Made by a program: the position numbers and the translations under genes. The notes under the pieces are model-generated. The model was given only the letters and a program-made list of their open reading frames with translations. It did no database searches and was not told the origin of the DNA. From Escherichia coli (GTDB lineage: Bacteria > Pseudomonadota > Gammaproteobacteria > Enterobacterales > Enterobacteriaceae): a stretch of 284 nt of DNA. The stretch lies in assembly GCF_003334385.1 (NCBI RefSeq), contig NZ_QOWN01000214.1; one strand, 5' to 3'. Shown here one piece after another: positions 1 to 284 of this stretch; the stretch's first letter is position 1, and every line of letters starts with the position of its first letter.

Positions 1-284
1 TGTCTGTTCGGCCCGGCCTTACTGGCTGGCTATATCACCGAACGCATAACCCGGTTGTTCCATATTCGCTGGCTGGCAGGCGTATTTCTGACGATTGCCG
101 GAATGATCATCAGCTTCATGTGGGGACTTGATGGTAAACATATCGCGCTGGAGGCTCACACCTTTGACTCTGTGAAATTTATTCTGACCACCGCTCTCGC
201 CGGTGGTCTGCTGGCTGTTCCCCTGCAGATCAAAAACATTCAGCAGAACGGGATCACACCAGAAGATATCAGCAAGGAAATTAA
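1..284 (+). CDS. Internal fragment of a gene for a predicted integral membrane protein (possible transporter or permease; family not identified). Partial at both ends; reading frame phase 1, last complete codon at 280-282.
   Basis: Seen in sequence: frame +1 is open for all 94 codons, while + frames 2 and 3 have stops at 47-49 (taa) and 129-131 (tga). The translation has one ~20-residue hydrophobic segment (WLAGVFLTIAGMIISFMWGL, codons 24-43), a second of ~16 residues (FILTTALAGGLLAVPL, codons 60-75), and the tail of another at the 5' edge (CLFGPALLAGYI). A short basic loop (TERITRLFHIR) between the first two fits the positive-inside rule for a cytoplasmic loop. Codon usage is strongly CTG-biased for Leu (9 of 13), typical of highly used enterobacterial codons. 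Inference: membrane protein; the exact family would need a homology search. Confidence 0.7.

Follow-up and report, generated by a model that had tools for sequence, protein, structure and literature searches.

Within a stretch of Escherichia coli DNA of 284 nucleotides (contig NZ_QOWN01000214.1 of assembly GCF_003334385.1, referred to here in its entirety as the window), an open reading frame passes from strongly hydrophobic sequence into a polar, charged segment at positions 226 to 284. That segment raises the question of whether it is a cytoplasmic loop joining two membrane helices or marks the point where a soluble tail or domain at the C-terminus begins; both possibilities were offered in the original prediction, made from the window alone. 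The window belongs to yeeR, a gene already annotated in E. coli K-12: nucleotide comparison to that genome shows identity at 284 of 284 bases (100%) inside yeeR, and the gene is annotated in frame +1 of the window, which covers residues 39 to 133 of the protein. Read in the context of the complete protein, and with a probability of roughly 0.82, the flagged segment is a short cytoplasmic loop (termed L4 below) that joins the fourth and fifth helices of the YeeR N-terminal membrane domain.

Translation of positions 226 to 282 in frame +1 yields QIKNIQQNGITPEDISKEI, preceded directly by FILTTALAGGLLAVPL; the full segment, 226 to 284, corresponds to YeeR residues 114 to 132 plus two bases of codon 133. 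Five of its 19 residues are charged and seven are asparagine, glutamine, serine or threonine, and its mean Kyte-Doolittle hydropathy is -0.88, where the helix before it averages +2.01 and the remainder of the window +1.03. Translation and hydropathy therefore bear out the description of a polar, charged segment that follows hydrophobic sequence in a frame still open at base 284. When the residues of the window were shuffled, an equally polar stretch of 19 residues was found in 3113 of 20000 shuffles (16%), which is not significant, and the reality of the loop consequently rests on an alignment of 54 homologs that are 31 to 68% identical to the full-length allele of E. coli (the family alignment, from which all family values below are drawn). 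In that alignment the same columns have a mean hydropathy of -0.79, with flanks of +1.45 and +1.07, and the polar segment is real at the family level. The differences between the window and an E. coli allele 94% identical to it comprise 10 synonymous codons and 6 conservative ones, among them K116R, in which the charge is kept; they confirm purifying selection on the frame.

The choice between a loop and a soluble domain was settled by the sequence immediately downstream. The full YeeR translation continues as SKEI-NG-YYCCFYTAFFLMACSACAPLIAL-QYDISPS-LMWWGGLLYWLAALVTLLWAA-SQIQALKK, and hydrophobic sequence restarts at Y135 (YYCCFYTAFFLMACSACAPLIAL), two residues beyond the end of the window. 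Two further hydrophobic helices (SKEINGYYCCFYTAFFLMACSACAPLIALQYDISPSLMWWGGLLYWLAALVTLLWAASQIQALKK) follow the segment at residues 135-157 and 166-188, the later of them being LMWWGGLLYWLAALVTLLWAA, and a Kyte-Doolittle peak of 1.88 falls at residues 139-157. The segment had been described as lying after the last hydrophobic helix, which holds inside the window and fails for the protein, where two more helices come after it. That the segment might instead open a soluble C-terminal tail or domain draws only on local polarity within the window; with hydrophobic helices beginning at residue 135 and near residue 166, and a polar stretch of only about 21 residues between helices, that reading retains virtually no probability, and the suggestion of a distinct soluble domain falls with the resumption of a hydrophobic helix so close to the window's end. 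A long polar, soluble part of the protein does exist; it starts near residue 190, after helix 6, approximately 55 residues beyond the point at which hydrophobicity restarts. The family profile displays the same arrangement, with hydrophobic blocks at residues 1-47, 62-80, 97-113, 140-156 and 171-188 and polar gaps between them. L4 ends at approximately residue 134-136, just beyond the window, and is flanked by helices of membrane-spanning length (helix 4 at residues 97-113 and helix 5 at residues 137-157).

The side of the membrane on which such a loop resides was addressed by counting lysine and arginine residues in each loop across the 54 homologs, since loops rich in those residues lie on the cytoplasmic side of the membrane (the positive-inside rule of von Heijne). 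L4 carries a mean of 3.96 such residues, the preceding loop L2 carries 2.93, and the 25 residues that follow helix 6 (25-26 in length across the family) carry 3.8; loops L3 and L5 carry 0.39 and 0.28, respectively. By virtue of that enrichment L2, L4 and the region after helix 6 are predicted to be cytoplasmic, and this distribution makes it most likely that L4 faces the cytoplasm. The invariant cysteines found after helix 6 (a CxxC motif at 333/336, together with C356, C360 and C367) fit the same assignment. The first of the two options offered for the segment, a cytoplasmic loop between helices, is thus supported by the restart at Y135, by the additional helix further downstream and by the family distribution of lysine and arginine.

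A reversed topology, in which L4 would be an inter-helix loop facing the periplasm, was weighed against these data and is judged to be distinctly improbable. It draws upon the E. coli allele itself, in which L4 is net acidic (two lysines to three aspartate or glutamate residues), and upon the lysine and arginine content of the short turn L1, which would fit a cytoplasmic L1 if residues 1-47 form a hairpin. Opposed to it are the family counts, with 2.9 to 4.0 lysine and arginine residues in L2, L4 and the stretch following helix 6 versus 0.3 to 0.4 in L3 and L5, and the presence, in a region on the same side as L4, of invariant cysteines of the kind commonly seen where zinc is bound in the reducing cytoplasm.

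Several observations nevertheless weigh against a cytoplasmic L4, or against its having a role in the K-12 protein: (i) L4 of the E. coli allele has a net charge of -1; (ii) L3 of that same allele also holds two lysines, so that the assignment of sides rests on the family rather than on the individual sequence; (iii) the L1 turn carries approximately 1.2 lysine or arginine residues; (iv) in a structural model of the protein residues 2-57 form a single continuous helix, leaving a count of either five or six helices; (v) a search of the accessible literature for experimental determinations of YeeR topology found nothing; and (vi) YeeR is truncated in K-12, so L4 may have no working role there. 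Five or six membrane helices are possible before residue 190, and L2 and L4 share one side of the membrane in either case. Compared to the cytoplasmic loops of bacterial polytopic inner-membrane proteins in general, L4 is alike in being short and polar, in its family-level enrichment in lysine and arginine, and in being flanked by helices of about 17-21 residues; the E. coli loop differs from them in that it is itself weakly charged.

The structural model was built with AlphaFold2 for the 838-residue allele, using the 54-sequence alignment, and has a mean predicted local distance difference test (pLDDT) score of 77.6. It places a helix at residues 93-120, a coil at 121-128 (NGITPEDI) and a second helix at 129-159, with pLDDT values of approximately 85-92 throughout this region. 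Within L4, residues 114-120 are modelled as a prolongation of helix 4, the turn occupies window positions 247-270, and residue 129 (window position 271) opens helix 5. On the basis of this model L4 is probably a helix-turn-helix connector, with helix 4 extending to about residue 120, an eight-residue turn, and helix 5 beginning at about S129. No PDB entry matched by sequence at E <= 1, and Foldseek returned nothing from the PDB at E <= 0.001.

The lengths of the loops follow the same division as their charges. L4 is 21-24 residues long in all 54 homologs and L2 is 14-16, so that the two predicted cytoplasmic loops are invariant in length down to 31% identity; the predicted periplasmic loops L3 (3-27 residues) and L5 (2-14 residues) vary several-fold. 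L4 is at the same time the least conserved region of the protein, with a mean column identity of 0.27; moderate conservation is seen for a lysine at about position 130 and for an aromatic residue at about position 136. The constant lengths of L2 and L4 are most simply read as reflecting the geometry demanded of a helix-turn-helix connector, and L4, instead of having a catalytic or binding function, would determine topology and serve as a spacer that holds helices 4 and 5 in position relative to each other. A refinement of this explanation would attribute the length invariance to a role of L4 in gating, or in letting the winged-helix, zinc or YeeR_C domains of the cytoplasmic part dock onto the membrane domain. 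The fixed lengths and the two moderately conserved positions are consistent with it; the sequence of L4 is the least conserved in the protein, however, and plain packing of a helical hairpin can also fix the length of a loop, and the refinement is considered unlikely. More speculative by far, and given very little credence, is an extension in which L2 and L4 together would form a docking or gating surface by which the cytoplasmic winged-helix, zinc and YeeR_C domains of the full-length protein would control its membrane domain, and YeeR would be a membrane-acting effector of mobile-element defence or exclusion.

With L4 read as a cytoplasmic connector at positions 226..284 (residues 114-133), the remainder of the window, all of it on the + strand, resolves into an alternation of hydrophobic helices and polar loops. 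Positions 1..27 encode the C-terminal end of the second hydrophobic helix (residues 39-47, CLFGPALLA), as seen in both single-sequence and family hydropathy and contained within the first AlphaFold2 helix. Within residues 1-57, where AlphaFold2 has one helix, hydropathy points to two (4-22 and 28-47), as does a lysine/arginine pair near residues 19-23. Loop L2, predicted to be cytoplasmic, follows at 28..69 (residues 48-61, GYITERITRLFHIR) and precedes the third hydrophobic helix at 70..126 (residues 62-80, WLAGVFLTIAGMIISFMWG), which displays a 19-residue Kyte-Doolittle peak of 2.03, a matching block of family hydropathy and an AlphaFold2 helix at residues 61-82. Loop L3, predicted to be periplasmic and containing a mean of 1.89 aspartate and glutamate residues, is encoded by 127..174 (residues 81-96, LDGKHIALEAHTFDSV), and the fourth hydrophobic helix, recognized by hydropathy and by the model, by 175..225 (residues 97-113, KFILTTALAGGLLAVPL). 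The opposite strand of the window holds only open reading frames of 27-46 codons, all within the annotated gene, and these were dismissed as chance; a search of Rfam with both strands gave no match at E <= 1.

In the K-12 locus (L001) the window spans positions 6001-6284, inside the annotated yeeR coding sequence at 5887-7419, and K-12 yeeR is carried by the CP4-44 cryptic prophage with the antigen 43 (Ag43) gene, agn43 or flu, immediately upstream. The K-12 gene order is agn43 - yeeR - yeeS - yeeT - cbeA - cbtA, and that of the intact island is Ag43 - 838-residue protein - IrmA - DUF905 - DUF932 - antirestriction - JAB. The gene thus occupies the genomic position expected of yeeR, within the flu-yeeR cluster of an island of the CP4 type, and in its DNA, its frame and its place between agn43 and yeeS the window is the same as K-12 YeeR (annotated as 'protein YeeR', and named 'Inner membrane protein YeeR' among its UniRef homologs). 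The stretch is present in 2208 of 5426 complete E. coli genomes (approximately 40%), at up to five places per genome. Seven plasmid records in PLSDB also contain it, four of which are about 4.8-4.9 Mb, the size of a chromosome, and one of which is a Klebsiella pneumoniae plasmid; a phage collection contained no nucleotide match to the window.

The K-12 protein is a shortened form of this family. At 510 residues it is cut at codon 507 by a deletion of 3,336 bp relative to the 838-residue allele of other E. coli, which makes the K-12 allele atypical: the K-12 locus aligns up to position 7407 with the intact island (L002) up to 8407, and resumes at L002 position 11744 (junction at L001 7407/7410). 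Lost through the deletion are YeeR codons 508-838, irmA, the genes for DUF905, DUF932 and antirestriction proteins, and the start of yeeS, the JAB gene. In K-12 the protein ends ...EGKVEER and a stop codon; intact alleles read ...EGKVPGVTDP... on to 838 residues. The truncation has already been published, in a report that places yeeR within a flu-yeeR-irmA cluster and notes that irmA, aec70 and aec71 are missing from K-12 (PMC6480617), and that cluster is often duplicated in pathogenic strains (PMC9431211). A further variant of the deletion junction was observed in a 658-residue protein from one assembly contig (P0001), in which loss of the stop codon (EGKVEGEMTPGER) joins truncated YeeR in frame to the RadC/JAB protein YeeS; this fusion carries both PF04002 and PF27347, and could be either a real allele or a sequencing error.

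Full-length homologs of approximately 820-850 residues occur in Gamma- and Betaproteobacteria and carry PF27347, the Pfam family named YeeR_C. Precomputed PF27347 matches exist for a near-identical 838-residue allele and for most of the homologs; a profile search of Pfam-A found none on either the 510- or the 838-residue protein, presumably with that family absent from the copy that was searched. All invariant family residues fall within 333-812, in the C-terminal three-fifths of the 838-residue allele (P0003, encoded at L002 6887-9403), and include, besides the five cysteines, GGQGHGFAAE (406-415), D442, R443 and Q451-x-K453-Y454; conservation is poor in the membrane part at the N-terminus. 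The K-12 protein can hold the first part of the YeeR_C domain at most. It shares with the full-length family the N-terminal pattern of helices and loops, including a polar loop of 21-24 residues at the equivalent place, and differs from it in lacking most of the conserved C-terminal two-fifths; the sequence of that loop is itself essentially unconserved. In the resulting map of YeeR, a helical membrane part at the N-terminus is followed by a probable tandem winged helix, then by a cysteine cluster and the conserved YeeR_C region.

Profile searches added modestly to this map. A candidate-defence model in PADLOC, PDC-M09B, weakly matches the central conserved domain (residues 410-552 of the 838-residue allele; E 1.1e-5 and 1.1e-4), which hints that the domain may be shared with a component of a proposed anti-phage system. 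NCBIfam contains no family that matches either the 510- or the 838-residue protein, and the Pfam-A hits to SUR7 (E 0.093) and C19orf12 (E 0.017) were set aside as noise below threshold. PHROGs gave no match for K-12 YeeR and, for the full-length protein, only a weak tape-measure match across a glycine-rich region. Further hydrophobic, glycine-rich segments were observed in the 838-residue allele at residues 551-566, 648-662 and 683-727, within the part absent from K-12; one of them is AGGAVGSVAGGILFSPLGPFGALTGRVVGGVLGGMIASAV, where pLDDT falls short of 50. Such segments could be glycine zippers or additional stretches of membrane sequence, and they account for the weak tape-measure and C19orf12 matches and for the name 'YcfJ' given by JGI.

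Two distant homologs, with 36-40% identity, were found in Methylomonas paludis (L004) and Herbaspirillum sp. (L006), beside neither Ag43 nor a CbtA/CbeA module. Their surroundings resemble mobile or defence loci and include transposases, an integrase and genes for a HicA toxin, a TIR-domain protein and a protein with a faint PLD-like match. In one of the two loci a DUF1902 gene adjoins the HicA toxin gene, and IS66 and the TIR gene (CAP12-PCTIR) are also present; the other contains a phage integrase, a DUF6361 protein, the protein with the faint PLD-like match, and a protein of 1049 residues.

L4 is, in the end, an ordinary loop of a gene that had already been annotated, and approximately 60 more bases of sequence sufficed to decide between loop and domain. 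The domain map of YeeR that emerged in the course of answering it is a useful starting point for work on a widespread, island-borne and uncharacterised protein of approximately 840 residues.
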